Notes: generated by a model from the letters alone, not told the origin. Positions 1,685-38,605 are shown, counted from the first letter of the stretch. The stretch is 38,605 nt of DNA from a bacterium (GCA_047639155.1 JBLING010000001.1:1-38605); one strand, 5' to 3'. Translations and numbers: made by a program.

Positions 1685-1689
1685 AAAAG

Positions 1690-2059
1690 TGGAGCTGCCG
1701 GGAGTCGAACCCGGGTCCGGAGAAGGAATTAAATCAAGATTTCTACATGTTTATAACCTATTATTTTCGAAGTAAACTAGGTTAGGTTCGGACCTCCTTT
1801 TACTCTTATTCTGCTAATAAGACAGTTGAACGCAGACCTGCCAACTGAATATTTGAGCATTTCGACCGCCCTTAACCCGTCGCAGCTCAAACATAGCAAC
1901 GGAGAGCGGATGGTTTTTGTTTAATCTCTAAGATTAAGCAGCCATAGCGTAGTTAGACTCGCCTTTTATGTGTTTGAAGGTTTGTATTTAAGAGCAATGC
2001 CCACAACGCTCTACATGCTTACCTGTTAATTGGCCCTCCCGTCAAGTCCAGTCAGCCCC
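1690..2059 (-). ncRNA. ssrA: tmRNA (transfer-messenger RNA)
   Basis: The reverse strand starts GGGGCTGACTGGACTTGACGGGAGGGCC at 2059. The 5' GGGGCTG pairs with the 3' CAGCTCC, including the G3:U70 pair, followed by discriminator A at 1690. The T-arm is CCGGG-TTCGACT-CCCGG. The tag ORF GGC GAG TCT AAC TAC GCT ATG GCT GCT TAA encodes GESNYAMAA* (1963 down to 1934). CCA is not encoded. Confidence 0.93.
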
Positions 2060-8172: not shown

Positions 8173-8178
8173 TTTTTG

Positions 8179-8253
8179 TCGGGATGAGAGGATTTGAACC
8201 TCCGATCTCTCGCCCCCCAGACGAGCACTTTAACCGGACTAAGCTACATCCCG
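8179..8253 (-). tRNA. tRNA-Pro (anticodon GGG)
   Basis: Reverse strand: CGGGATG-TA-GCTT...AAGT-G-CTCGT-CTGGGGG-GCGAG-...-GGAGG-TTCAAAT-CCTCT-CATCCCG-A. It forms a full cloverleaf with a C1:G72 pair, G37 and discriminator A73, which are typical of bacterial tRNA-Pro. CCA is not encoded. Confidence 0.92.
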
Positions 8254-13174: not shown

Positions 13175-13588
13175 TTAAATGCTTTTGATTAAATTATTTT
13201 CCGCTTCGCGCATAGTTTTTTTTTCTTCCTCAGTTGAGTCATTCAACCCAGAGAGGTGGAGCAAACCATGCGCCATAACACGTTTTAATTCTTCCGCAAA
13301 AGTACAATTAAATGTTGCGGCGTTTTCAGTGACACGATCTATGCTAATGTACACCTCACAGTCCAGTGGTTCCCGAAATGCCTGTCGAAGATCAAAAGTG
13401 ATAATGTCTGTGTAATAGTCATGACCCAATTGAGCCCTGTTCATTTCTAATAAGAAATCATCAGAGCAAAAAACATAACGAATCGCTTCAATAGATGAAA
13501 ATAGCTTTTTTGAAACCCCCTCAAACCAAGGGGTTAGCGCCACAAAAAAGGGGGGCTCGCCAACATTGTGAAAGGTGTAGTGTATCAT
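13175..13588 (-). CDS. ybeY: rRNA maturation endoribonuclease YbeY
   Basis: Metal-binding motif HGLLHLSGLND. The 137-aa length is typical. The start overlaps the upstream gene's stop (ATGA). Confidence 0.92.
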   Translation of the reverse strand: MIHYTFHNVGEPPFFVALTPWFEGVSKKLFSSIEAIRYVFCSDDFLLEMNRAQLGHDYYTDIITFDLRQAFREPLDCEVYISIDRVTENAATFNCTFAEELKRVMAHGLLHLSGLNDSTEEEKKTMREAENNLIKSI

Positions 13589-15279
13589 CTTATTACCCGA
13601 ACACTTCCTGAAAGGCGATGTTTGTTGCCATTTAAATCCATTATTGCTATGTCGTAAAAATAAACACCCATAGGAACAAAAGTGGTTGTTGCGTCAACCG
13701 ACCATCCTGTTTGTACATCTTCGGTTATAAAGATTTGTTCCCCCCAACGATTAAACACAAGCATTTTAGAGTTGCCCTGGTCAATAGATGTTCCAATAAC
13801 TTTTAACGTGTGGTTTTTGGAAAGTGGGTTTAATGTGTTTGGAATATAATATACAGGTGTTCGTTTCGCACAAACCGTGTTGCTTTTTGAAACACGACTA
13901 AACCCATAAGTGTTTTGGTTTTCAACCGCTTCGACTCGAAAACACAGCATCGAGGTGTCTTTATTTTCATAGAACAAGTCTGTGGTGTTGGAAACAATGT
14001 TCCACGTGGAACCATCGAAACCCAATATGTTATATTCGGAAACTAAGCCATTCCAGTTGGTATATGGATTCCAAGTTAAATATTCCCCGTCTATTTTTAA
14101 AAGGATAGAGTTGCTGTACAATGAAGAACTTGTTCCACCTAAACAAGGTGCAAAGGTTCGAATAAAATATGTGTTACTTTTATTGTCAGTGAACGCGTTA
14201 TTGTCAATCCAAGTGTAAAACTGATCACCGGGTAATAGTTTTTTGCTACCAATTCTTTTGGGTGACCCCTCCACTCTGTATAACACAACACTGTCGGCAA
14301 CACCCTCATTATCAACGAAGGATTCTATTTTAATAATGTTTTTTCGTGCTACAGTAACTTGAGATAAGTATGTAAATTTTGGTAGTACCGGTTGCGTGAG
14401 TTTGGTGCAACTTACATTGGAAGAGGAGGATTTCTTTGAATCGACGGTATTTGTAGCACGAATAAAAAAGCAAACACTATCACCAAAATTAACGCCAGGG
14501 TGAGCATATGAAACATCGTTGGCACCAACAGGTGTTGGGGAGAAAGTTGAACGATTGATTGAAATATGGACAGCTTGGGTTTCCGATGCCCATCCAACAT
14601 AGCTGGTCCAAGTCAAAGATGCACTTTTGGTACAGGTGTCTAAGCTTGTATTCAGGATCATTGCAGTATGAAACGAGGAGATTGAAGAGAACAAATTACA
14701 AGAATCAAACGCGGCCAATGTATACCTAATTGGGAGCTTAACACTTTGATATTTAACCATATACACCAAACTAGATGTGTCGGCCAATGTGCTATTTATT
14801 CCATTTGATTGTGTGTAAACACGATATCCTTTTGTGTCTTTTGATGTGTTTGCCTGCCAACCAACGATTGGTCGTTGTGTTAAAAAATCAATACTTACGG
14901 AGTCAATCGCATTATCCGTAGGAGGTGTAATATCTAAAGCCAAAACGTTTGATTTTGCTGTGTCGCTTCCATTGCACTTAAACCGAGTTTCGAAAAAGAA
15001 AACCCAGGTTGGATTTGAGTTAGGTAACTTAATCTGAATAGAATTGGCGCCAAAGACCTTTTGTGTTTTGAGAAGGTTAAATATAATTTTGTCTTCGCTG
15101 CCATAAATTTGATGCTCAACAAAGGAACCACACGCATCATTGATGCTTGAATAGTCAATTGTTACAACACTATCAGCGACATTCATACAAGCACGAATCA
15201 AGGTCGGGGCCTTAGTGATGCCAGCTGCATGAAGTTGTGCAAAAAACACAACATAAAATATGATTAAGGGTCGTAACAT
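13585..15279 (-). CDS. Secreted protein with a gliding-motility-associated (T9SS type B) C-terminal domain
   Basis: Signal peptide MLRPLIIFYVVFFAQLHA. The C-terminus ...LVFNRWGEQIFITEDVQTGWSVD...GVYFYDIAIMDLNGNKHRLSGSVRVIR follows the CHU_C/type B pattern. Confidence 0.85.
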   Translation of the reverse strand: MLRPLIIFYVVFFAQLHAAGITKAPTLIRACMNVADSVVTIDYSSINDACGSFVEHQIYGSEDKIIFNLLKTQKVFGANSIQIKLPNSNPTWVFFFETRFKCNGSDTAKSNVLALDITPPTDNAIDSVSIDFLTQRPIVGWQANTSKDTKGYRVYTQSNGINSTLADTSSLVYMVKYQSVKLPIRYTLAAFDSCNLFSSISSFHTAMILNTSLDTCTKSASLTWTSYVGWASETQAVHISINRSTFSPTPVGANDVSYAHPGVNFGDSVCFFIRATNTVDSKKSSSSNVSCTKLTQPVLPKFTYLSQVTVARKNIIKIESFVDNEGVADSVVLYRVEGSPKRIGSKKLLPGDQFYTWIDNNAFTDNKSNTYFIRTFAPCLGGTSSSLYSNSILLKIDGEYLTWNPYTNWNGLVSEYNILGFDGSTWNIVSNTTDLFYENKDTSMLCFRVEAVENQNTYGFSRVSKSNTVCAKRTPVYYIPNTLNPLSKNHTLKVIGTSIDQGNSKMLVFNRWGEQIFITEDVQTGWSVDATTTFVPMGVYFYDIAIMDLNGNKHRLSGSVRVIR

Positions 15280-16368: not shown

Positions 16369-17238
16369 ATGAAAAAGCTAGCCATATTTATTGTTATTAT
16401 CTCGTCAACACTAAGCTGTACTGAGGTCCCCCCATTTATTGACCTTTCAGAGCCAATCTTGCTGGCAAGGGACACAACATATATAAGTTCAGATGTTCCA
16501 CAACAAGTATTAAAAAACGTATTAATAGAAGACATAAGTGGGGTTGCATGTAATAATTGTCCAAAAGCCGCCGATATCGCCCACGAAATTCAAGCAGCAA
16601 ATCCAAATAGAGTCGTTGTTATGACCCTACATTCAAACAAGTATGGTGTTTTTACCAGGCCATTCGCTGATAGTAAGGACACATTTAATACCGTTGAGGC
16701 AACAGAAATAGTGAGTAATTTGATTGGCGAACCTTCGGGACTTCCAGCTGGGGCAATTGACAGAAAACTGTTTGATGGAGAAACGAGTAAAATCAACCAA
16801 AATTACGAGACCTGGGGAACACAAGTAGACCTACAATTGGCGCTAAATGCCAAAGTAAAACTTGAGTTGGAGGTAATTAAACAGCAGGACCGTAAAGTAA
16901 TCGCAAACGTTAAAGCGACCTTTACCGAACAAGACGAAACACCGGTTTATTTGTCGATTTTTATTATCGAAAGTAAAATCAATTCAAAACAAAAATTGCC
17001 AGACAACACTTACGATAAGGACTTTGAGCACAATTCAATTTTAAGAAAGGGAGTCACAAATTATGCGGGGCTTTTGTTGGCCGAAAGTGTTGAGGTTGGA
17101 CGTGTTTTTGAAAAAGGAGTTAAAATCGATATTCCAGCAAAATACAATATCGACAACTGTGCAATAGTGGTTCTTATCAATAAAAACTCAGGAAACAATA
17201 CTGAAGTGATTCAATGCGCGGAACAGCACATTGAATAA
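16369..17238 (+). CDS. Omp28-related outer-membrane lipoprotein (tentative family call)
   Basis: Lipobox SSTLSC|TE and a CxxC pair (VACNNCPKA). The family assignment is from memory. The stop overlaps the xerD start (TAATG). Confidence 0.65.
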   Translation: MKKLAIFIVIISSTLSCTEVPPFIDLSEPILLARDTTYISSDVPQQVLKNVLIEDISGVACNNCPKAADIAHEIQAANPNRVVVMTLHSNKYGVFTRPFADSKDTFNTVEATEIVSNLIGEPSGLPAGAIDRKLFDGETSKINQNYETWGTQVDLQLALNAKVKLELEVIKQQDRKVIANVKATFTEQDETPVYLSIFIIESKINSKQKLPDNTYDKDFEHNSILRKGVTNYAGLLLAESVEVGRVFEKGVKIDIPAKYNIDNCAIVVLINKNSGNNTEVIQCAEQHIE

Positions 17239-18125
17239 TGGGCACATTTACAAAAGGCTTTAATCAGTATTTACAACTCGAACTTTCTTTATCGAAAAAC
17301 TCAGTTCAAGCGTACATGTCTGATGTTGACAAACTTGAACGATTTGCACAGGAATCAGATACCAGAATAAAGGACCTAAGCTTTCAGCAACTGCTCTCGT
17401 TTCTACAATGGATCAACGAGTTAGGCTTGGCAGAGCGAACCCAAGCACGCATTATTTCTGGCATAAAAGCGTTCTACACATACTTAGAACTTGAGGACGT
17501 TATTAAACAAAACCCTTCTGAGCTTTTAGAAACACCAAAACTTAGTAGAAAGCTGCCAGAAGTATTGGATATCGTCGAAATCGACAGAATGTTTTCCAGT
17601 ATTGATTTATCTACCTCTAGCGGACAAAGAGATCGAGCGATTTTAGAACTTTTGTATAGTTGTGGATTGCGGGTTTCGGAACTTACGAATCTAAAAATCA
17701 ACGACATAATGTTTGAGGAAGACTTAATTGTTGTCACAGGAAAAGGCGACAAGCAGAGAATCGTTCCTATTGGCAAAACAGCATTGCATCACATTGGATT
17801 GTATTTAAATCACTTTAGAAAACCACAAAAGGAAGCAACTGAGCACGATTCAACACTGTTTTTAAACCTTAGAGGTAAGGGTATTTCTAGGGTGTATATT
17901 TTCAAAAAAATAAAAGAAATCGCCATGTCTGTGGGGATAACAAAAAACATAAGCCCACACACTTTTAGACACTCATTTGCAACAGCACTTGTAGAGGCGG
18001 GGGCAGACCTTAGGGCTGTTCAACAGATGCTTGGACACAAGTCGATAACTACCACAGAGATATATACACATTTAGATAGAACATACTTAAAGGATGTAAT
18101 ACAACAGTTTCACCCCCGCAGCTAA
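17238..18125 (+). CDS. xerD: Tyrosine site-specific recombinase XerD
   Basis: Catalytic residues in context: CGLRVSEL (R), HTFRHSFATALVEAG (HxxR) and LGHKSITTTEIYTHL (H, Y). The N-terminal SAM-like domain has the XerD pattern (SKNSVQAYMSDV). Confidence 0.9.
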   Translation: MGTFTKGFNQYLQLELSLSKNSVQAYMSDVDKLERFAQESDTRIKDLSFQQLLSFLQWINELGLAERTQARIISGIKAFYTYLELEDVIKQNPSELLETPKLSRKLPEVLDIVEIDRMFSSIDLSTSSGQRDRAILELLYSCGLRVSELTNLKINDIMFEEDLIVVTGKGDKQRIVPIGKTALHHIGLYLNHFRKPQKEATEHDSTLFLNLRGKGISRVYIFKKIKEIAMSVGITKNISPHTFRHSFATALVEAGADLRAVQQMLGHKSITTTEIYTHLDRTYLKDVIQQFHPRS

Positions 18126-30543: not shown

Positions 30544-30653
30544 TAGACCATTATTTCCTCTTGTTTTATTATAAGTCCCTATCAAAATTGTGACACAATG
30601 ATTTGGCTTGATGATTTGGCACAATGTGTATATTGCGGCCAAATAATCAAATT

Positions 30654-32402
30654 ATGAAACAATTCTTACGCGTGGTAGCGTCTATCACTTTATGTTTTAC
30701 TTACTTCCTTGCAAATGCTCAAAGTCCTGATGGTTTTAATTATCAAGCGGTAGCAAGAGACAACTCTGGCGAATTATTAAAAAATAAAAGCATAACAGTT
30801 AAAGCAATAGTCCTTTCTGGCCAAAGCGCTTCGAACAAGGTTTATGAAGAAACACACGTAGTAACAACGAGCCAATTGGGCCACTTTAGCCTCGTAGTTG
30901 GACAAGGCTCTACAAGTGATAACTTTTCAAATATCGCGTGGTCAGAGAATCCACACTACCTTAAAATTGAAATAGACCAAGGGGGTGGTTTTGCTGTCAT
31001 GGGAACAGTGGAACTACAATCTGTGCCTTACGCGATGCATAGTAGAACGGCAGAAACAGTTACCAACGTTGACATATCTGCGGACGACCTTAACGACGTT
31101 AACAGTTCTTCAGCGAATACCGGTGAGGTGTTAAAATGGAACGGAACAGAATGGGCGCCAGCAGCTGATGAAAACACTTCAACTACGTATACGGCTGGAA
31201 ACGGAATTGATATTACATCAAATGTAATTTCTGCAAAAAGCGACGACAACATTTGGAATGCCAATAAAATTAGTGGTACGAATGTTACCGCAACCAACGC
31301 AAAAACTGGACAAGCGCTTCGTTGGGATGGTTCTAAGTGGGCTCCAGGTGATGATGCTAGTTCAAGCTATACACCCGGAACAGGAATAACCATTACAAGT
31401 GGTGTGATTGCAACTACACCAAGTGTTCCAATGTGGAACGCCGACAAACTAAATGGTTTTGGTTTAGACAACTCTGCAACACCTAAAAAAGATCAATATT
31501 TACGCTTTACAGGATCGAAAAGGAGTTACACGGATGGAGATACGGCACTATGGAAGAGCAATGGCGACGACATATACCGTGTTGGTGGAATGGTTGGAAT
31601 AAACACAGATGACGCAACGAATAGATTAAAAGTGTGGGATAGTATTAATCATAGTACATCAGGCTTGTTCATTATGACAGATAACGTAATGTATGGTGGC
31701 CTTGGAACTGGAGGCACTTTTTCTGCACAACGATCATTGGTGATTGGCCAAGGTGGCGCGTATGGCTATGGAGCCATTAATGTAATTACTGGGGACGTAC
31801 ATACGCAAGGAGAAGGTATTGGATCTTATACGCTTGCAAGTAGCACTGGCCGCACCAGTATTGCATACTTTGGTAATGCGACAAACGGTAATACGTTTAA
31901 CCTCGGCGTTTATGCTGATGCATCTACATCAGCCAATAGCTCTACAGGAACCAACTATGGGATATTTGCAATTGCTGATAGTGCTGGAACAAACTATGCG
32001 GGATATTTTGCTGGTGATGTAAATTATACTGGAACACTTACAAACGCATCAGACGCGAAACTAAAGTACGACGTACAAGCATTACCTAACGCTATTGAAA
32101 CCATAAAAGCAATTACACCAAAACAGTATTATTATAAACAAGATGGAGAAGCAGAAGCCTTAAAACTTTCTGACGGACTTCAGTTTGGTTTTATAGCGCA
32201 GGAATTAGAAAAAGTTTTGCCGAATCTTGTAAAGGACCAAGTTCAATGGGCGGGTCATAAAAAAGAGGGTCAAATAGAGTACAAAGCGGTGAACTATGTG
32301 GGTTTGATTCCAGTATTAACTCAGGCGATTAAAGAACAGCAGGAGTATATTGACGCTTTAGAAGAACGTTTAAGTGTTTTAGAAAAAACAATTGAGAAGT
32401 AA
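30654..32402 (+). CDS. Secreted tail-fibre-like protein with a C-terminal S74-type intramolecular chaperone domain
   Basis: The start is set at MKQFLRVVASITLCFTYFLANAQ (signal peptide). WNGxxW modules occur at GEVLKWNGTEWAP and GQALRWDGSKWAP. A Gly/Asn/Tyr-rich repeat follows (NYGIFAIADSAGTNYAGYFAGDVNYTG). The sequence then runs SDAKLK...FGFIAQELEKVLPNLV...NYVGLIPVLTQAIKEQQ plus a coiled coil. Confidence 0.85.
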   Translation: MKQFLRVVASITLCFTYFLANAQSPDGFNYQAVARDNSGELLKNKSITVKAIVLSGQSASNKVYEETHVVTTSQLGHFSLVVGQGSTSDNFSNIAWSENPHYLKIEIDQGGGFAVMGTVELQSVPYAMHSRTAETVTNVDISADDLNDVNSSSANTGEVLKWNGTEWAPAADENTSTTYTAGNGIDITSNVISAKSDDNIWNANKISGTNVTATNAKTGQALRWDGSKWAPGDDASSSYTPGTGITITSGVIATTPSVPMWNADKLNGFGLDNSATPKKDQYLRFTGSKRSYTDGDTALWKSNGDDIYRVGGMVGINTDDATNRLKVWDSINHSTSGLFIMTDNVMYGGLGTGGTFSAQRSLVIGQGGAYGYGAINVITGDVHTQGEGIGSYTLASSTGRTSIAYFGNATNGNTFNLGVYADASTSANSSTGTNYGIFAIADSAGTNYAGYFAGDVNYTGTLTNASDAKLKYDVQALPNAIETIKAITPKQYYYKQDGEAEALKLSDGLQFGFIAQELEKVLPNLVKDQVQWAGHKKEGQIEYKAVNYVGLIPVLTQAIKEQQEYIDALEERLSVLEKTIEK

Positions 32403-32403
32403 T

Positions 32404-32880
32404 ATGAGCATCAGAAATATAACATTGCTGACCGCTCTGCTTTTTGCAACCTCGGTCAGTGCACAATCCATAGAAAGAAGTGTTGTGAGCACAGGTGGAA
32501 ATACCTCAACAACCGCTTCGCTTTCAATAGAATATACAATAGGGGAGATGGCTTTCGGCCAGTATTCAAACACATCTATAGATTTATCCGCTGGGTTTAA
32601 TCAGGCGTATGAGACTGATAACTCATCCATTCCTGTTGTAACCTCGGTAGGAAGGGTTTCGGTTTATCCCAATCCTACAAACGCTTCTTTAAATGTATTA
32701 AGTTCGTCAAATTGTACTGTTCGTATAACATCTGTTCAGGGATTAGTAATGAGTCACTCTGTCGAAATTACAGGTGCGTTGATACACACACTAAATGTTT
32801 CGCATTATGCTTCTGGTCTATACATCCTAGAAGTTTCGAATGGATTTGAAGTGAGTTATACGAAGTGGATAAAGAACTAG
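32404..32880 (+). CDS. Small secreted protein with a T9SS type A sorting domain
   Basis: The start MSIRNITLLTALLFATSVSAQ lies 1 nt after the preceding stop. The C-terminus VYPNPTNASLNVLS...ASGLYILEVSNGFEVSYTKWIKN follows the Por_Secre_tail pattern. Confidence 0.8.
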   Translation: MSIRNITLLTALLFATSVSAQSIERSVVSTGGNTSTTASLSIEYTIGEMAFGQYSNTSIDLSAGFNQAYETDNSSIPVVTSVGRVSVYPNPTNASLNVLSSSNCTVRITSVQGLVMSHSVEITGALIHTLNVSHYASGLYILEVSNGFEVSYTKWIKN

Positions 32881-35180
32881 CGTATTACCGATAAGGTTCC
32901 AGAGAATCTAAATACGTCGTTGTAAACGTCCTTAATCTTTATGAGGTAGAGGTACGTTCCTTCTTGTACCAATTCTCCCATATATGTGCCGTCCCACGGT
33001 TTGTCGATATGGTCAGAGTGATAAATTTGTTCACCCCATCGTGTATAAATGGTCATGTCAAGCGACTTAATACCATACAACATACCACCGGGCCCGAAGG
33101 TGGTGTTGACGTCATTATCTGGGCCAGGACTAAACGCGTTTGGAATAAAAATGTTCAGGTTGGGCTTTACGATGATGGTACGATAAAATGTATCAGCACA
33201 CTTAAAGTCATTGTTTGCGATTAAGCGCGCACGAAATATTCCCGTGTCTAAGTATTGGTGTAAGGCCTCAGGCCCAAATTCTTCAGGAGAAAAATCACCA
33301 AAAGACCATTGCCACCAATTGGCATCTGAACCACTTTCTATGAAATTAACAAAAGGGTCGGTGATGTATATTTCTTTAGGAAACTGGTCAAACTTTGCTT
33401 TGGCTTTTGGCCAGATTGTTATGTTTTGATTTACAGAGTCAACACACCCAAAACCATTTCTAACAGCAAGCTGGACGGGGTAACTCCCGGCTGAATTAAA
33501 TACCTGATTGTGATCTTGAAGATAGGAAACAATCTTTCCTTTTACCCGCCACCGCCATTCATCTATGTTGCCTGTAGTGGTTGTGCTATCGTAAAAAAAG
33601 GCTTCTTGGCGCTCACAAATATTTGCAAATCCGAAGTCAACTTCCGGGAGTGGTTGAATTTCTATAGTTTGGTTCAATGTGTCAACGCAACCAAAAGTGT
33701 TTTCAGTAACCAACTGAATCGGTTTAATTCCAGAAACACCAAATGCATGTATTGGAGCGAGCGTCGAAAAGAGGTTTCCGTCAATATTCCAATCGTGTTT
33801 TAAAGGCATTCCAATGGTAGAACTTGAATTCGATGCAAACTGGGTAGTTTCGCTTGAACAAGTATCTCGATATGTAAAGCTACTATTAGGTAAAGGATAA
33901 ATTTGAATTGTCTTTGTTATCGAATCCCAGCAGCCTCTTTGCCCTCGCACTTTTCTTTTCACATCAAAGTAACCATCGCCACCAAACTGGCGAAGCAAGG
34001 TGTTTTGACTATAAAGCGCATTACCCTCGTAAATCCAAACAGAAGTATCTATAGTACCTACTTGAATGTATGACGAGTCTGTAAACAATACAGGTAGTTT
34101 ATCACAGTCGTTGTTAAACGTAAAATTTGAAACGGGACAATGTGGATAGTTGGCTAATACCCAAGCACCGGATATTGTATTCACACTCCCGGTAACGGTT
34201 TTGTTCTTTGCAACGTCATTCGTGCCAGGAATACCGTAATCCCAAGAGCCAGATGCGCTGTTATACCGTGCGGGCTTTATGTCTTTTTCAATTAATGTGT
34301 TCAGACTTCCGGCTGTTGCATCCCACTCTCTATCGACGTAAGAGAGCCCAAGTTTAACAACAGGATAGCTGCTATATCCATCTGACGCGAGTACGTAGAA
34401 ACGGTCAACAGATTTAACATCGTTTTCAATTTTATATCGATTGTCTAGGTGTGGAACACCAATTGGTAATGGTCTGTTGTTTGGTGTTATTATAGGGTTG
34501 GTTGGATAGGTCGCTACGGAGACATAACCCGAATCACCCGACTGGGTGCCAACATAACCTACGGCAATGTCCATTGGGATGTGTTGAAAGTCTATTGTGC
34601 CAAAGGGTATTGTAAAAGTATTTCCAGCTGTAGCATCACGCAAATTCCATTGCACCTTACTATAACCCTTGGTTGGGTCAGTATCGCCTATCAACAAACC
34701 GGCACCTCGAGTAATTGCTCCGGTTGAATTATTGTTGACTATAAGTGCGTTAGAGTTCAGTAGTAAATGTCGGTTGTTTAATGCCAAAACACCTTTCCTT
34801 GGAGACGCATAACCACCACCAACGAGAGTTCGTATCATTAAACGCTTTATTCCACCACCAGAGAACACCAAGTTGTTAAACGATGTTGTAGTGGTTCCTG
34901 TAATTCGTTGGTTCCCTCCCGTAAGCTCCACAGTTCCATCGTTATTCCCAATAGCAGGTGTCGACCCTTGGTTGACCCAATCGCCATCTACATGTATCGT
35001 TGCAGTATTGTTCGTAGTTATAAGGCCAGTACCCTTGTTTGTATAGTCGCCGGTAATCCCGTTGACAACAATATGACTGCTGTCTTTCAGTACAATTTGT
35101 ACGTCTTTCGTCACCCATCCTTGGCAGAAAGCGGGAGACAGGGAGAACATCAAAGCGATATGTGTGAACAGTTTTTTCAT
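32877..35180 (-). CDS. Large secreted beta-helix/PKD-repeat protein with a T9SS type B (gliding-motility-associated) C-terminal domain
   Basis: Signal peptide MKKLFTHIALMFSLSPAFCQ. PKD-like repeats occur (FTYRDTCSSETTQF..., VDFGFANICERQEAFF...). The C-terminus IPNAFSPGPDNDVNTTF...YTRWGEQIYHSD...WDGTYMGELVQEGTYLYLIKI...GTLSVIR is type B. Confidence 0.85.
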   Translation of the reverse strand: MKKLFTHIALMFSLSPAFCQGWVTKDVQIVLKDSSHIVVNGITGDYTNKGTGLITTNNTATIHVDGDWVNQGSTPAIGNNDGTVELTGGNQRITGTTTTSFNNLVFSGGGIKRLMIRTLVGGGYASPRKGVLALNNRHLLLNSNALIVNNNSTGAITRGAGLLIGDTDPTKGYSKVQWNLRDATAGNTFTIPFGTIDFQHIPMDIAVGYVGTQSGDSGYVSVATYPTNPIITPNNRPLPIGVPHLDNRYKIENDVKSVDRFYVLASDGYSSYPVVKLGLSYVDREWDATAGSLNTLIEKDIKPARYNSASGSWDYGIPGTNDVAKNKTVTGSVNTISGAWVLANYPHCPVSNFTFNNDCDKLPVLFTDSSYIQVGTIDTSVWIYEGNALYSQNTLLRQFGGDGYFDVKRKVRGQRGCWDSITKTIQIYPLPNSSFTYRDTCSSETTQFASNSSSTIGMPLKHDWNIDGNLFSTLAPIHAFGVSGIKPIQLVTENTFGCVDTLNQTIEIQPLPEVDFGFANICERQEAFFYDSTTTTGNIDEWRWRVKGKIVSYLQDHNQVFNSAGSYPVQLAVRNGFGCVDSVNQNITIWPKAKAKFDQFPKEIYITDPFVNFIESGSDANWWQWSFGDFSPEEFGPEALHQYLDTGIFRARLIANNDFKCADTFYRTIIVKPNLNIFIPNAFSPGPDNDVNTTFGPGGMLYGIKSLDMTIYTRWGEQIYHSDHIDKPWDGTYMGELVQEGTYLYLIKIKDVYNDVFRFSGTLSVIR

Positions 35181-35194
35181 TAAGCGACCGGGTG

Positions 35195-38100
35195 CTATTT
35201 TCTGTCTTCTAATAACCGTTTGATTTCGTCTATTTCTTGTTTAAGTGCTTTTAATTCAGTGTCTTGTTTAGAGATTGTGTCCTCTAAAATTTGAATTTTA
35301 TTGGTTCTTATAACCAATGCTTGAATGGCAATCATGTTAACACCATCAAATGCTAAAGTGCTTATTCCTAAACTGTCGGATCCACCTAAACCAAAGGACG
35401 AATAAAAATCTTGGGCCATTGGGCCAATGTACTTCACGTCGTCTGTATTGCCTTTGTAGTTCCATTTTGTAATGGAAAGATTTTCAATTTTATGAAGAAT
35501 CGCTTCTCCGTTAACATCTTCAAAATTTTCCTTCATGTTTTTGTCTGAGACAGAACTCCACGATGTTCCGGCGTTGTTCATGTATACCCCAGTACTTAAA
35601 TCGGATTTTGTATAAAGGCGGTAACCGTTGTTAAAACGCATGGTCATGGTATGTTGCGCAGCACTTAACGTTGGAGTTGTTGTACTTCCATCGCCAAAAA
35701 TGAATGAACCGTTTTTGAAGTTTGTAGAAACATAACTTCCTATTGCCACAGACCTATCTGCAATTGCATCAACGTTATTACCTATTGCCACAGAATAAGG
35801 ATTATTGGTTCGAACGTTTGTTCCAATTGCAATTGCTCCTGTTCCTTCTGAATAAGCATTGTGTCCAATAGCTACGGCATAACTTCCTTTAACGGTATCT
35901 CGGTAACCGAAAGCATAGCCATGTTTGTGGCCACTTAACACCAAACATTCCTCTCCAAAAACTCCTGAGTTAGTACCCAATACGGTTGAATTTGTTCCAA
36001 CTATATAAGAATACTGACCGTATGCGTTATTTCCCGTTCCAATTGCGGTCGTGTTTGTACCACCTGTAATTGAACGATTTCCGATTGCTATCGAATAAGG
36101 TAATTGTGTTATGCTACTATCTCCAAGGGCGATACTATGTTCTCCTAATGCAGAGGCCCCGTTTCCAACGGCAAAAGTATGGTCGTCTGAAGCGACCGAC
36201 CCGTAGCCGAATGCGGTTGAATATAACCCAAGATTGGCGGCGTTCCATTCTCCACCAACTGCTGTACCTGCTCTAAATGCAGATACGCGTGGATTGAAAT
36301 GTAAGCGTGTTCCGGCTCCTAACGAACCAGCAGTTGCACCTGTTCCAACTTTGCCACTGACGATAAACCCGTCAGTACCTTGTACTTCCACTGCGCCATT
36401 ATCCGCGCCCATTATGCGCCCATTGCCCGCACCACCTTCGTCGTACGCCATGTCTAATGTGTTTCTGTTTAAGTAACCTGGAACCCAAGTTGTCCCGTCC
36501 CAAACGATTACATCGCCAACCGTATTACCTGATTTTAATCCTAGTTTTTTCGGACTCGCAGCTGTTCCTGCACCCGTTAAGCTTAAAAAGCCATTTGTAA
36601 TTGTATCTGTTACTTCGTTTCCAATTACACCGTCAACTTCCGCTGGGTGTGTAATTGGTGTTGGCACCCAAGAAGATCCGTTCCACATCCAAACATCACC
36701 AGAACTACTGCCTGTGTTTATTTCGATTTTATACGGATTTGCTGTCGTCCCGTTTCCAGTTCTATTTAATATTCCACGCGAATTTGACGTATCGGTTAAT
36801 TCGTTTCCTATGATACCATCGACTTCAGCAGGGTGCGTAATAGGCGTAGGCACCCAGGCCGACCCATTCCACATCCACACGTCTCCAGAGTTATTACCAC
36901 TGTTCACACCAACACTAAATGGGTCAGCTGCGGTTCCTGAACCGCCTTTTGATAATATGCCTTTTGAACCAAGTGTGTCTGCAATTTCATTTCCAACAAC
37001 ACTGTCTTGTTCCTTTGGAATTACGATAGTTGTTAATATCCATTTAGAACCATTCCAGACCAAAGATTGACCTCTTGTTGTACCAGGCTTTGCACCAATA
37101 GTATAAGGATCTACGTCTGTTCCGCCACCTTGTCTAACAATTAAGCCATATGTATTTAATGTATCCGCGATTTCGTTACCAATTACGCTGTCTTTTTCTT
37201 TGGGAACAAAAACGGGAGGGTGAATAATCGCAGTTGGCACCCAAGAAGATCCGTTCCACATCCATACGTCACCAGAAGTTACACCAGGCTCAATACCCAT
37301 TTTCAAAGGGCTAGCTGTTGTCCCGCCGCCGTAAATATTTAAAATTCCACGGGCGTTTGTAGTATCAACAACCTCATTGCCTACAATACCGTCGACTTCA
37401 GCAGGTATTGTTATCGGTGAAGACACCCACTTATTTCCATCCCACATCCACACGTCTCCGACATTATTTCCAGCCGTTACACCAATTTTGTATGGATTCG
37501 CACCTATACCAGTACCTCGGCGTGTTAAAACACCCCGTGCGTTTACTGTGTCTGCAATTTCGTTTCCTATTATAGCATCTACTTCCGTTGGAAACACAAT
37601 GGGTTTTGATACCCACTTACTTCCGTCCCACATAAACACATCGCCAGCGGTTGTTCCTGCTGTAACACCTATTGTATACGGGTTGGCTGAGTTGCCACTT
37701 CCATTTCTAATTAAAACACCTCTTGATTGTGCAGTATCGGCTATTTCATTTCCAATTACGCTGTCTTTTTCGAAAGGGAATTGTGTCAATTCCCAATTGC
37801 CGCCATTCCACATCCAAATGTCGTTTGTGGTTTGCCCAGCCTTTACACCTACTGTGTATGGGTCAGCACTAGTTCCAGAACCGCCCCTGTTGAGTAAGCC
37901 TAAGCTGTTGGCCGTATCTGTAATTTCATTGCCTATTATTCCATCAACTTCACGCAGCAAGATGTTACCTGCAAAAACGAGCTGACCAAAGGAGTTGACC
38001 CTAAATTGGGGAATTGAATCTGAAGTACCATATTGTCCAGGTGTAACACCTGTTGGCTCTAAGCTAATTGTTCCATAACCCTCAATGGTGTTGCCTAATA

Positions 38101-38449
38101 AACCCGTACCTGCTGTAATATTTTGAAAGACCGGTTTCCACCTATTTTTGTCATAATACCAAAAACCGACAGTATCATCTGTCTGATATACCATTAAACC
38201 GTTGGCTGGGGTAGGTATGCCGAGTTTAGCAATTTTTGAAAGGCGCGGAATCAGCATGCCCCTTGAGTTGGATTTTACATCCATAATCGCTGATGGATCT
38301 GGATCTGCCCCATCTTCATTTACGCCCACACCTTGACCATAAGTCACTGAATAAGAGAGCGCAGAAAGAAAGAGGACAAACAGCCCCTTTTTAACTTTTG
38401 GCAGCAAATTTCTGTTTTGTAGAGTATGTACTAATCGACAATTACGCAT
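35195..38449 (-). CDS. 1084-aa secreted chimeric fibre protein: N-terminal domain, 8 tandem repeats, YadA-head-like repeats and an S74-type chaperone domain
   Basis: It has a signal-like N-terminus (LFVLFLSALSYSVTYGQ), 8 repeats of about 62 aa (aa 167-659) and Hep_Hag/YadA-head-like repeats (SIALGDSS, SIAIGNRS, TAIGTGNNA, AVAIGHNA, AIAIGTNV, SVAIGNNV, SVAIGSYV). The C-terminus runs SDKNMK...IGPMAQDFYSSFGLG...DGVNMIAIQAL plus a coiled coil. Confidence 0.9.
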   Translation of the reverse strand: MRNCRLVHTLQNRNLLPKVKKGLFVLFLSALSYSVTYGQGVGVNEDGADPDPSAIMDVKSNSRGMLIPRLSKIAKLGIPTPANGLMVYQTDDTVGFWYYDKNRWKPVFQNITAGTGLLGNTIEGYGTISLEPTGVTPGQYGTSDSIPQFRVNSFGQLVFAGNILLREVDGIIGNEITDTANSLGLLNRGGSGTSADPYTVGVKAGQTTNDIWMWNGGNWELTQFPFEKDSVIGNEIADTAQSRGVLIRNGSGNSANPYTIGVTAGTTAGDVFMWDGSKWVSKPIVFPTEVDAIIGNEIADTVNARGVLTRRGTGIGANPYKIGVTAGNNVGDVWMWDGNKWVSSPITIPAEVDGIVGNEVVDTTNARGILNIYGGGTTASPLKMGIEPGVTSGDVWMWNGSSWVPTAIIHPPVFVPKEKDSVIGNEIADTLNTYGLIVRQGGGTDVDPYTIGAKPGTTRGQSLVWNGSKWILTTIVIPKEQDSVVGNEIADTLGSKGILSKGGSGTAADPFSVGVNSGNNSGDVWMWNGSAWVPTPITHPAEVDGIIGNELTDTSNSRGILNRTGNGTTANPYKIEINTGSSSGDVWMWNGSSWVPTPITHPAEVDGVIGNEVTDTITNGFLSLTGAGTAASPKKLGLKSGNTVGDVIVWDGTTWVPGYLNRNTLDMAYDEGGAGNGRIMGADNGAVEVQGTDGFIVSGKVGTGATAGSLGAGTRLHFNPRVSAFRAGTAVGGEWNAANLGLYSTAFGYGSVASDDHTFAVGNGASALGEHSIALGDSSITQLPYSIAIGNRSITGGTNTTAIGTGNNAYGQYSYIVGTNSTVLGTNSGVFGEECLVLSGHKHGYAFGYRDTVKGSYAVAIGHNAYSEGTGAIAIGTNVRTNNPYSVAIGNNVDAIADRSVAIGSYVSTNFKNGSFIFGDGSTTTPTLSAAQHTMTMRFNNGYRLYTKSDLSTGVYMNNAGTSWSSVSDKNMKENFEDVNGEAILHKIENLSITKWNYKGNTDDVKYIGPMAQDFYSSFGLGGSDSLGISTLAFDGVNMIAIQALVIRTNKIQILEDTISKQDTELKALKQEIDEIKRLLEDRK
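36473..37951 (-). repeat. Eight in-frame tandem coding repeats (about 168-201 bp each)
   Basis: Units start at E(V/K/Q)D(G/S/A)(I/V)(I/V)GNE. Each contains ...PY.IGV..G...GDVWMWNGS.WVP. The unit boundaries I counted are aa 167, 227, 289, 351, 418, 480, 542 and 604-659. Confidence 0.9.
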
Positions 38450-38563: not shown

Positions 38564-38605
38564 ATGGAAATGGATAAAGAAATTTTTGATCTAATCAACC
38601 AAGAA
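38564..38605 (+). CDS. glyA: First 14 codons of a probable serine hydroxymethyltransferase
   Basis: MEMDKEIFDLINQE matches the usual Bacteroidota GlyA N-terminus pattern (..D..IFDLI..E, from memory). Only 42 nt are visible, so this is tentative. Confidence 0.4.
   Translation, partial: MEMDKEIFDLINQE

Follow-up and report, generated by a model that had tools for sequence, protein, structure and literature searches.

MAT-like fibres of Bacteroidota are encoded beside a small T9SS-sorted protein that tracks their N-terminal domain

A bacterial DNA stretch of 38,605 nucleotides (nt) (GCA_047639155.1 JBLING010000001.1:1-38605; hereafter the window, meaning the whole stretch) carries at positions 30654 to 38449 a pair of two-gene operons, independent of each other, that are predicted to encode trimeric fibres of the cell surface, each joining a fibre gene to the gene of a secreted partner with a C-terminal sorting domain (CTD) of the T9SS (type IX secretion system). 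Fibre 1, encoded in the plus arm, is by profile comparison a homologue of the MAT fibres of Bdellovibrio, and its partner A belongs to a large family whose members track the MAT_N-like N-terminal domain (N-domain) of such fibres, not their C-terminal S74 chaperone. We propose, at a probability of about one half, that the conserved module of partner A docks onto the N-terminal base of fibre 1 while its CTD provides T9SS export and anchoring in trans; by analogy, and much less certainly, fibre 2 would be displayed with or on partner B. The four open reading frames (ORFs) and their exact junctions are as a first-pass annotation, made from the sequence alone, had called them. Pfam and NCBIfam searches also bear out its assignment of S74 domains to both fibres, of a type A CTD to partner A and of PKD repeats with a type B CTD to partner B, and they returned no sorting domain match in fibre 1 or fibre 2.

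30654..32402, plus strand: fibre 1 gene, ORF of 582 aa; secreted fibre of MAT type that ends in an S74 chaperone
30654..30719, plus strand: fibre 1 signal peptide, aa 1-22 (ANA/QSP), assigned by eye; helix at aa 2-20 in the AlphaFold2 (AF2) model; Q23 invariant among homologues
30720..31058, plus strand: fibre 1 N-domain, aa 23-135; homologue of the N-terminal domain of Bdellovibrio MAT fibres; candidate site where the partner module would dock
31059..32048, plus strand: fibre 1 shaft; W(N/D)GxxW at aa 162 and 224; Gly/Asn-rich beta region
32049..32399, plus strand: fibre 1 S74 chaperone/auto-processing domain, aa 466-582; S466-D467-x3-K471, then a terminal helix
32404..32880, plus strand: partner A gene, ORF of 158 aa; minimal T9SS type A cargo
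32464..32613, plus strand: partner A conserved module, aa 21-70, from alignments; mature N-terminus
32662..32877, plus strand: partner A type A sorting domain, aa 87-158 (PF18962 and TIGR04183); beta-sandwich
32877..35180, minus strand: partner B gene, 767 aa; N-terminal region specific to the lineage, followed by PKD repeats and a type B sorting domain
35195..38449, minus strand: fibre 2 gene, 1084 aa; distinct N-domain, 8 repeats, YadA-like head, S74 chaperone

Fibre 1 and partner A

The N-terminus of fibre 1 matched the Bdello_MAT_N profile (NF053851) at 45.1 bits (E = 8.8e-12), below the curated cutoff of 60, and the same profile matched 17 of the 17 aligned members of the fibre 1 family, also below the cutoff (best E = 1.9e-12). 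At the level of sequence profiles such matches show homology to the MAT N-domain, short of membership under NCBI's rule. The N-domain is all-beta in the AF2 model, with a predicted local distance difference test score (pLDDT) of 81-91, and Foldseek returned only generic Ig-like matches for it. The family profile matched the crystal structure of Bdellovibrio Bd2133 (8ond, E = 3.8e-4) in the shaft region, which is of modest confidence in the AF2 monomer model. The Bd2133 match lends support to a trimeric fibre at the cell surface. In the published definition, a MAT protein opens with a signal peptide and then an N-domain of ~130 aa, invariant and beta-rich, which a trimeric fibre and a variable tip follow; a self-cleaving S74 domain terminates 13 of the 21 Bdellovibrio MAT fibres (Caulton et al. 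2024, PMC10769870).

On these matches, fibre 1 is a Bacteroidota counterpart of the Bdellovibrio fibres. It resembles their S74 subgroup in the signal peptide placed directly before a beta-rich N-domain (homology in 17/17 members), in the long fibre with a Bd2133-like body, in the C-terminal S74 domain with SDxxxK, in the mosaic of tips borne on one N-domain, and in its cellular nature with no virion part. In contrast to the Bdellovibrio proteins, fibre 1 comes from Bacteroidota, is shorter, scores 45 bits against the 60-bit cutoff, belongs to a host not known as a predator and is accompanied in a systematic way by a small module protein sorted by the T9SS, a pairing unreported for Bdellovibrio; fibre 2 differs further in having an N-domain of another type.

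The C-terminal region of fibre 1 matched Peptidase_S74 (PF13884) at 54.1 bits (cutoff 22) over aa 466-527. The catalytic motif SDAKLK begins at aa 466, and S466, D467 and K471 are invariant in 52 homologues. With Foldseek the AF2 monomer matched the MyRF ICA structure 7dc3 (TM 0.74, E = 9e-6) as well as 3gw6, and a PDB sequence search with the S74 region matched 6f45 and 7dc3; the model ends in a helix at aa 548-581. From the motif and the model, trimerisation by the S74 domain and self-cleavage at Ser466 are predicted. The S74 fold, the Ser-Lys motif, the C-terminal position and the terminal helix are shared with phage spikes and fibres (K1F endosialidase 3GW6, T5 pb1, the T4-like long tail fibre 6f45) and with MyRF ICA 7dc3. 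Unlike the phage fibres, both fibres of the window have a Sec signal peptide and a cell-surface-type N-domain, with no virion genes nearby.

Fibre 1 has two copies of the motif W-(N/D)-G-x-x-W (0.006 expected from shuffles) and fibre 2 has eight (0.011 expected); the repeat modules of the first-pass annotation are thus present, but its formula had one x too many. Fibre 1 is 100% identical to P0001, from a metagenome-assembled genome (MAG) of a Bacteroidia bacterium, whose database gene call is 582 aa; an alternative in-frame ATG at 30624 would give 592 aa. The window as a whole likewise has 100% identity to a MAG annotated as Bacteroidia.

In partner A a signal peptide precedes a conserved 45-aa module, which a short linker joins to a type A CTD, the last recognised by Por_Secre_tail (PF18962; 42.8 bits, cutoff 27, aa 87-158 of 158) and by TIGR04183 (41.1 bits, cutoff 23). 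Both partners resemble T9SS cargo of type A (RgpB, RemA) or type B with PorP/SprF shuttles (SprB/SprF) in combining a signal peptide with a C-terminal sorting domain. In contrast to canonical cargo, the passenger of partner A is the 45-aa module only, with no enzymatic or adhesin domain, and the apparent functional protein, the fibre, lacks a sorting domain; a signal supplied in trans was not found described. Mature partner A, with the CTD removed, would be only ~65 aa long. In AF2 the CTD is a confident beta-sandwich (pLDDT above 90), and the module alone has a pLDDT of 56-69 despite a deep, conserved alignment, as would be expected of a segment that folds upon binding.

Aligned partners share the approximate module consensus QS(I/L)ER-V(I/V)S--G...T(I/V)GE...LTQGF-Q. 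An exhaustive profile search, from which the family size is taken, found at least 7,455 clusters at 50% identity (E<=1e-3) and 1,941 at E<=1e-10; a word-indexed search, subject to candidate-selection bias, returned only 56-89-aa fragments, and two contexts were used from it. Among the 144 top module representatives, 117 were proteins of 120-200 aa (typically ~160 aa) with a signal peptide, the module and a type A CTD, and the named family members that were looked up were all from Bacteroidota. A natural fusion of module and N-domain occurred in none of the 144 representatives and in none of the 131 N-domain ORFs described below. The partner at locus L033 has a type B CTD in place of type A; the conserved trait is therefore the combination of the module with any CTD. 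Module variants were also seen (P0296, P0317, P0344; P0272, P0273). In some variants the module is followed by a ~230-aa domain with dockerin-like Asp-rich repeats and no CTD, often downstream of an N-domain gene in the metagenome sample, and two carry tandem modules ahead of the CTD.

Pairing of the module with the N-domain

The small partner tracks the MAT_N-like N-domain, not S74, in two samples of loci. The fibre-centred sample came from a genome scan seeded in the S74 domain and comprised 80 species-level loci, whose genes were labelled by hidden Markov models (HMMs) from Pfam-validated seeds, with 20 proteins spot-checked with Pfam/NCBIfam; CTD type (A or B) was assigned by the better HMM score. 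The partner-centred sample was drawn from metagenome contigs with the motif LTQGF[HQ]QP, a pattern that covers part of the module family and excludes the window's own SAGFNQA subtype, and held 107 module ORFs in 120 loci, 77 of the ORFs being assessable. In this second sample 68 of the 77 assessable module genes (88%) had a same-strand N-domain gene within 400 nt, and S74 was present in 11 of the 82 N-domain ORFs. In the fibre-centred sample every small partner adjoined an N-domain protein, including N-domain proteins without S74. A small CTD gene lay next to 19 of 47 S74 genes without their own CTD and next to none of the 30 with a fused CTD (Fisher p = 1.9e-5), against a background of 4 small CTD genes among 336. 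A CTD in cis was found in 0 of 49 N-domain ORFs of the fibre-centred sample and 0 of 82 of the partner-centred sample (0/131). Pairs of the plus-arm type occur in either gene order, with tight or overlapping spacing. Over 21 pairs, module divergence tracked that of the N-domain (r = 0.60; partial r = 0.53 given S74; permutation p = 5e-4) and did not track that of S74 (partial r = -0.19). The pairing of fibre and sorting-domain genes suggested by the first-pass annotation is thus real and recurrent in other genomes for the plus arm; for the minus arm it is conserved within one lineage only.

Three architectures were distinguished. In the first, a CTD-less N-domain fibre is accompanied by a small module-CTD gene that lies either directly downstream, which is the arrangement in the window, or upstream. 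In the second, found in Bacteroidales, the same cassette lies within a cluster that also holds PKD/CHU_C and PorP/SprF-OmpA proteins. A four-gene cluster of this kind (L014:3126-7614; same layout in L019, L025 and L047) encodes a PKD/CHU_C protein, a PorP/SprF-OmpA fusion of 495 aa, a small protein that combines Por_Secre_tail with a divergent N-terminal part and an N-domain S74 fibre, and its PorP/SprF-OmpA gene is a further likeness to T9SS type B systems. The third comprises S74 fibres that begin with other N-terminal regions and end in a type A CTD of their own, placed behind chaperone and coiled coil. The type A domain followed the chaperone in 30 of the 77 assessable Bacteroidota S74 genes of the fibre-centred sample, and TIGR04183 scored above its cutoff in 7 of 10 such proteins tested. 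The first-pass view that a fibre needs a partner because a chaperone occupies its C-terminus does not survive these 30 genes. The order S74, coiled coil and type A CTD within one polypeptide was seen in L018, L023, L049, L051, L055, L070 (L070:2331-5648), L089 and others, and the genes were often preceded by that of a ~330-aa CHU_C protein. In these proteins the export signal sits on the self-cleaving part, which requires that export comes before autoproteolysis or is coupled to it. No description of the S74-then-sorting-domain layout was found in the literature searched.

The N-domain was found in Flavobacteriales, Chitinophagales, Bacteroidales and other Bacteroidota, with mosaic tips: S74, collagen repeats, DUF1566-like domains or none of these. 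The two-gene pair is also present in a culturable organism, bacterium SCSIO 12741 (CP073749, at about 3.50 Mb of the record). S74 fibres with weak N-domain matches (21-30 bits) were seen outside Bacteroidota in Cloacimonadota MAGs (L017, L028, L031, L050), and a Thermoanaerobaculia MAG (L061) is listed with the S74 fibres from outside Bacteroidota, some of which adjoin larger Por_Secre_tail proteins. Tandem fibre arrays of up to five or six genes occur (L063, L073, L080, L020, L082), among them five N-domain genes in L063 and six S74-CTD genes of ~400 aa in L082; they fit diversification by tip swapping. At L091:7001-9307 a frameshifted module gene is followed by an N-domain collagen-repeat gene and then by a bAvd gene (PF22296), and a diversity-generating retroelement may target the MAT-type fibre there.

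Proposed mode of action and its rivals

The T9SS rules relied on here are those given in PMC10202324 and PMC12618676. T9SS signals are strictly C-terminal, and a fibre of this kind needs a free C-terminal tip and attachment at its N-terminus. It could not use a C-terminal signal, since the signal would be lost or the wrong end would be tethered, and for these reasons we suggest that the signal is supplied in trans. Fibre 1 would be exported via Sec to the periplasm; its S74 domain would trimerise it and then cut itself at Ser466, freeing the distal tip, and the conserved N-domain would form the cell-proximal base. The module of partner A would bind the N-domain in the periplasm and its sorting domain would carry the complex through the T9SS by the PorV route. 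Type A sorting domains are cleaved, and the cargo that bore them can become attached to the surface (PMC10202324); once the sorting domain had been removed and attachment had taken place, fibre 1 would be left tethered by its base. We infer the physical binding, the co-export and the anchoring from sequence comparison, and favour co-export with anchoring since Bacteroidota have no other known route for a protein of this kind. The closest concept is the 'hitch-hiker' co-export of the twin-arginine translocation (Tat) system, for example of PaoABC (PMC4273604), in which a folded protein without a signal rides on a signal-bearing partner; membrane and machinery differ, and the comparison is conceptual. 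With somewhat less confidence, we extend the proposal to the large minimal-cargo family, whose members could be trans sorting and anchoring adaptors that grip CTD-less MAT-type fibres, allowing hitch-hiking export, a base-first tether and a free, self-processed tip.

Several observations weigh against this proposal. To our knowledge, Bdellovibrio has no T9SS. Its MAT fibres are nevertheless found on the cell surface (PMC10769870), so that in at least one phylum the N-domain class can reach the surface with no T9SS partner. No precedent for T9SS hitch-hiking was found in the literature searched. About five N-domain loci (L045, L060, L073, L080, L087) have no partner within 6 kb, and 9 of the 77 module genes have no N-domain neighbour. 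The mirror-tree signal may merely reflect the shared vertical descent of adjacent segments. The N-domain and the lack of a cis CTD always go together, and this complete confounding keeps genomics from separating escort from anchor. In the minus arm, a profile search found no PorP/SprF-like shuttle gene among the window ORFs; orphan type B cargo is known (PMC12618676), so that a lone partner B can still be type B cargo. The pairing of fibre 2 with partner B is found at one orthologous position (the glyA site) in one lineage only, and elsewhere the fibre 2 type of N-domain occurs with a cis CTD (L027, L074, L086), beside neighbouring CTD proteins (L039, L059) or with neither (L029, L073).

Because Bdellovibrio displays MAT fibres apparently without a T9SS, the main rival to co-export with anchoring is that partner A is an anchor only: the fibre would cross the outer membrane by another route, and its N-domain would dock outside the cell onto partner A that the T9SS had brought to the surface. 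The adjacency and complementarity data support this as they do co-export. It also fits the proposal that MAT N-domains bind a surface element, the identity of the anchor being unknown in Bdellovibrio (PMC10769870), and the behaviour of type A cargo, which loses its sorting domain and can be attached to the surface (PMC10202324). We nonetheless consider it unlikely, as no route is known that takes a CTD-less, non-lipoprotein product of signal peptidase I across the Bacteroidota outer membrane (PMC12618676).

Less probable again is that the two genes are co-regulated neighbours whose products make no contact, the module-CTD protein being an independent surface or secreted factor such as a short adhesin, a spacer or a signal. 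Surface-protein genes do cluster in Bacteroidota, CTD genes are enriched throughout the loci (31/336 background genes), and two further CTD genes lie inside the window. Such clustering sits poorly, however, with the 88% adjacency, the tight or overlapping spacing in both gene orders and the strict complementarity with cis CTDs; the cassette is moreover carried whole in phage-like contigs, and a ~65-aa mature partner is hard to picture as a stand-alone effector.

Were the partner instead to serve the S74 end, supplying a sorting domain by binding the C-terminal part of the fibre, the small partners of the fibre-centred sample would be expected where they are found, beside S74 fibres without their own CTD and never beside fused S74-CTD proteins. 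That reading is largely refuted, and we give it very little credence: a cis CTD after S74 is common (30/77, with TIGR04183 above cutoff in 7/10), S74 is present in 11 of the 82 N-domain ORFs of the partner-centred loci, the others including collagen-repeat and DUF1566-like tips, and module divergence does not track S74 once the N-domain is allowed for (partial r = -0.19).

The minus arm, the genomic setting and significance

The features of the minus arm are as follows.

38012..38341, minus strand: fibre 2 N-terminal domain, aa 37-146; PF26696 PTL_trimer in the precomputed Pfam annotation of orthologues, and our own HMM
36485..37951, minus strand: eight repeats of ~62 aa in fibre 2, each with (I/V)(I/V)GNE and W(N/D)GxxW
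35660..36277, minus strand: YadA-like head repeats of fibre 2, aa ~725-930; PF05658, 72.3 bits
35198..35548, minus strand: fibre 2 S74 chaperone domain, aa 968-1084; PF13884, SDKNMK, terminal helix
33201..34148, minus strand: PKD-like repeats of partner B, aa ~345-660; PKD_4 in three stretches and PKD, with internal BLAST self-similarity
32880..33149, minus strand: type B sorting domain of partner B, aa 678-767; CHU_C, TIGR04131

Fibre 2 matched Peptidase_S74 at 37.5 bits (cutoff 22, aa 968-1017), its catalytic motif SDKNMK beginning at aa 968, and had no match to NF053851 (MAT_N). The head repeats matched the PDB entries of BpaC (7o23), YadA (1p9h) and EibD (2xqh), and also CbpF. The head repeats and the expected trimeric state recall trimeric autotransporter adhesins (YadA, BpaC, EibD); in contrast to these, fibre 2 ends in S74, and profiles found no C-terminal YadA-type beta-barrel anchor. 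An identity as a trimeric autotransporter adhesin was rejected, the protein having YadA_head repeats only, an S74 C-terminus and no membrane anchor, and export by type Vc autotransport is impossible because the C-terminus is the S74 chaperone. Partner B matched PKD_4 (73 bits) and CHU_C (PF13585; 43.5 bits, cutoff 27), fell just under the cutoff of 35 for TIGR04131 (34.6 bits) and had no match in a PDB sequence search. Every orthologue of partner B, to as little as 43% identity, comes immediately after a fibre 2 orthologue, and the minus-arm operon is kept at 43% to 72% identity in nine related loci. By analogy with the plus arm it is plausible, if weakly supported, that the type-B-sorted PKD protein takes part in displaying fibre 2, either alongside it or as its support.

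The junction of fibre 1 and partner A (32400-32406) reads TAA, a single T and ATG; fibre 2 and partner B are separated by 14 nt (35181-35194), and the stop codons of the two arms overlap in CTAG at 32877-32880. Relatives at 74% and 49% identity have all four genes between purS and glyA. Loci L007-L010 (43-55% identity) keep fibre 2 and partner B beside glyA with the plus arm missing, and L002/L003 and L006 have fibre 1 and partner A only, in unrelated neighbourhoods. The two convergent pairs had initially been taken as one system, which we rejected, as each arm occurs without the other in relatives; the convergent layout is therefore an accident of this lineage.

Signal peptides of all four proteins were assigned by eye (n/h/c pattern), and the +1 residue of each mature protein is Gln (ANA/QSP, VSA/QSI, AFC/QGW, TYG/QGV; codons at 30720, 32464, 35123 on the minus strand and 38335 on the minus strand). 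Under the Bacteroidetes 'Q-rule', signal peptidase I cleavage is followed by formation of an N-terminal pyroglutamate, and the +1 Gln in all four proteins is consistent with it.

The housekeeping flanks named in the first-pass annotation were identified as CDP-OH_P_transf (pssA-like) and PurS upstream of the locus and SHMT/glyA on the other side, the latter with its start MDKEIFDLINQE at 38567. The rest of the 38.6-kb window holds housekeeping or ordinary outer-membrane genes (MnmG, PheS, YbeY, acyl-CoA dehydrogenase, TonB-dependent receptors, transfer-messenger RNA (tmRNA)), with three further features of note.

17238-18125, plus strand: tyrosine recombinase, 295 aa; Phage_integrase 149.8 bits and SAM_1; between Omp28 and LD-carboxypeptidase genes
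13585-15279, minus strand: T9SS cargo with CHU_C (type B), 564 aa
20324-22033, minus strand: T9SS cargo, BD-FAE/Por_Secre_tail (type A), 569 aa

The two further CTD genes indicate that the host organism employs a T9SS; no T9SS core genes lie within the window. The recombinase is probably of the housekeeping-like XerC/D type, because its size and SAM_1 domain fit and its neighbours are housekeeping genes. The tmRNA gene (1689-2059, minus strand; tag GESNYAMAA) and the tRNA-Pro(GGG) gene (8178-8253, minus strand) do not adjoin the fibre locus, so there is no hint of an integration site at it.

PHROGs matches were limited to the C-terminal tail-fibre/S74 parts of both fibres, with none on the partners, and no capsid, terminase, sheath, tube or baseplate genes were found in the window. 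The first-pass statement that phage genes are absent holds for capsid, terminase and baseplate and fails for integrase, given the Phage_integrase-family gene at 17238-18125. The N-domain was present on 3 of 2.9 million IMG/VR contigs, two of them genuinely phage-like, with the whole cassette and signal peptides on both proteins; the cassette therefore moves as a unit. In these two cases (L094:7476-8666 and L096:7443-9383) the module-CTD partner precedes the N-domain protein, the contigs carry a large terminase or a DnaB-like helicase, and the L096 fibre ends in a DUF1566-like domain. The phage-borne cassette may represent phage-driven decoration of the host surface.

Another reading sees both fibres as tail fibres left by a degraded element of phage type (a prophage, tailocin or contractile-injection-system remnant). 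It draws on the tail-fibre PHROGs matches, the integrase-family gene and the two phage-like contigs, and it has next to no likelihood, since Sec signal peptides on all four proteins direct them out of the cytoplasm, where virions assemble, no virion or sheath-tube-baseplate genes occur in 38.6 kb, the pssA-purS/glyA synteny is retained among relatives down to 43% identity, the recombinase is XerC/D-type, 12.5 kb distant and amid housekeeping genes, and the N-domain is on merely 3 of 2.9 million IMG/VR contigs. We rejected an extracellular contractile-injection-system, prophage or tailocin identity on the chromosomal housekeeping context, the signal peptides and the conserved synteny, in agreement with the initial call of a cellular locus.

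The components are of known kinds, and the cassette and its trans-signal logic appear new: the literature searched yielded no paper that connects the T9SS with S74 or MAT fibres, and the two-gene cassette of fibre and module-CTD protein is apparently very common and undescribed. Databases label the products 'tail fiber domain-containing protein' and 'T9SS type A sorting domain-containing protein', unlinked to each other. The description of MAT fibres dates only from 2024 and concerns a predator, and it left unexplained how the conserved base is held on the cell; for the anchor or escort of that base, the module protein offers a specific candidate open to testing. If the proposal is true, the T9SS would handle cargo whose signal rides on another polypeptide, beyond the rule of one cargo and one C-terminal domain, the kind of surface element bound by MAT N-domains would be named, and the carriage of the two-gene cassette by phages would be explained as a means of decorating the host surface. 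In abundant bacteria of the environment and the gut, these fibres probably determine adhesion, contact between cells or with prey, or interactions with phages.

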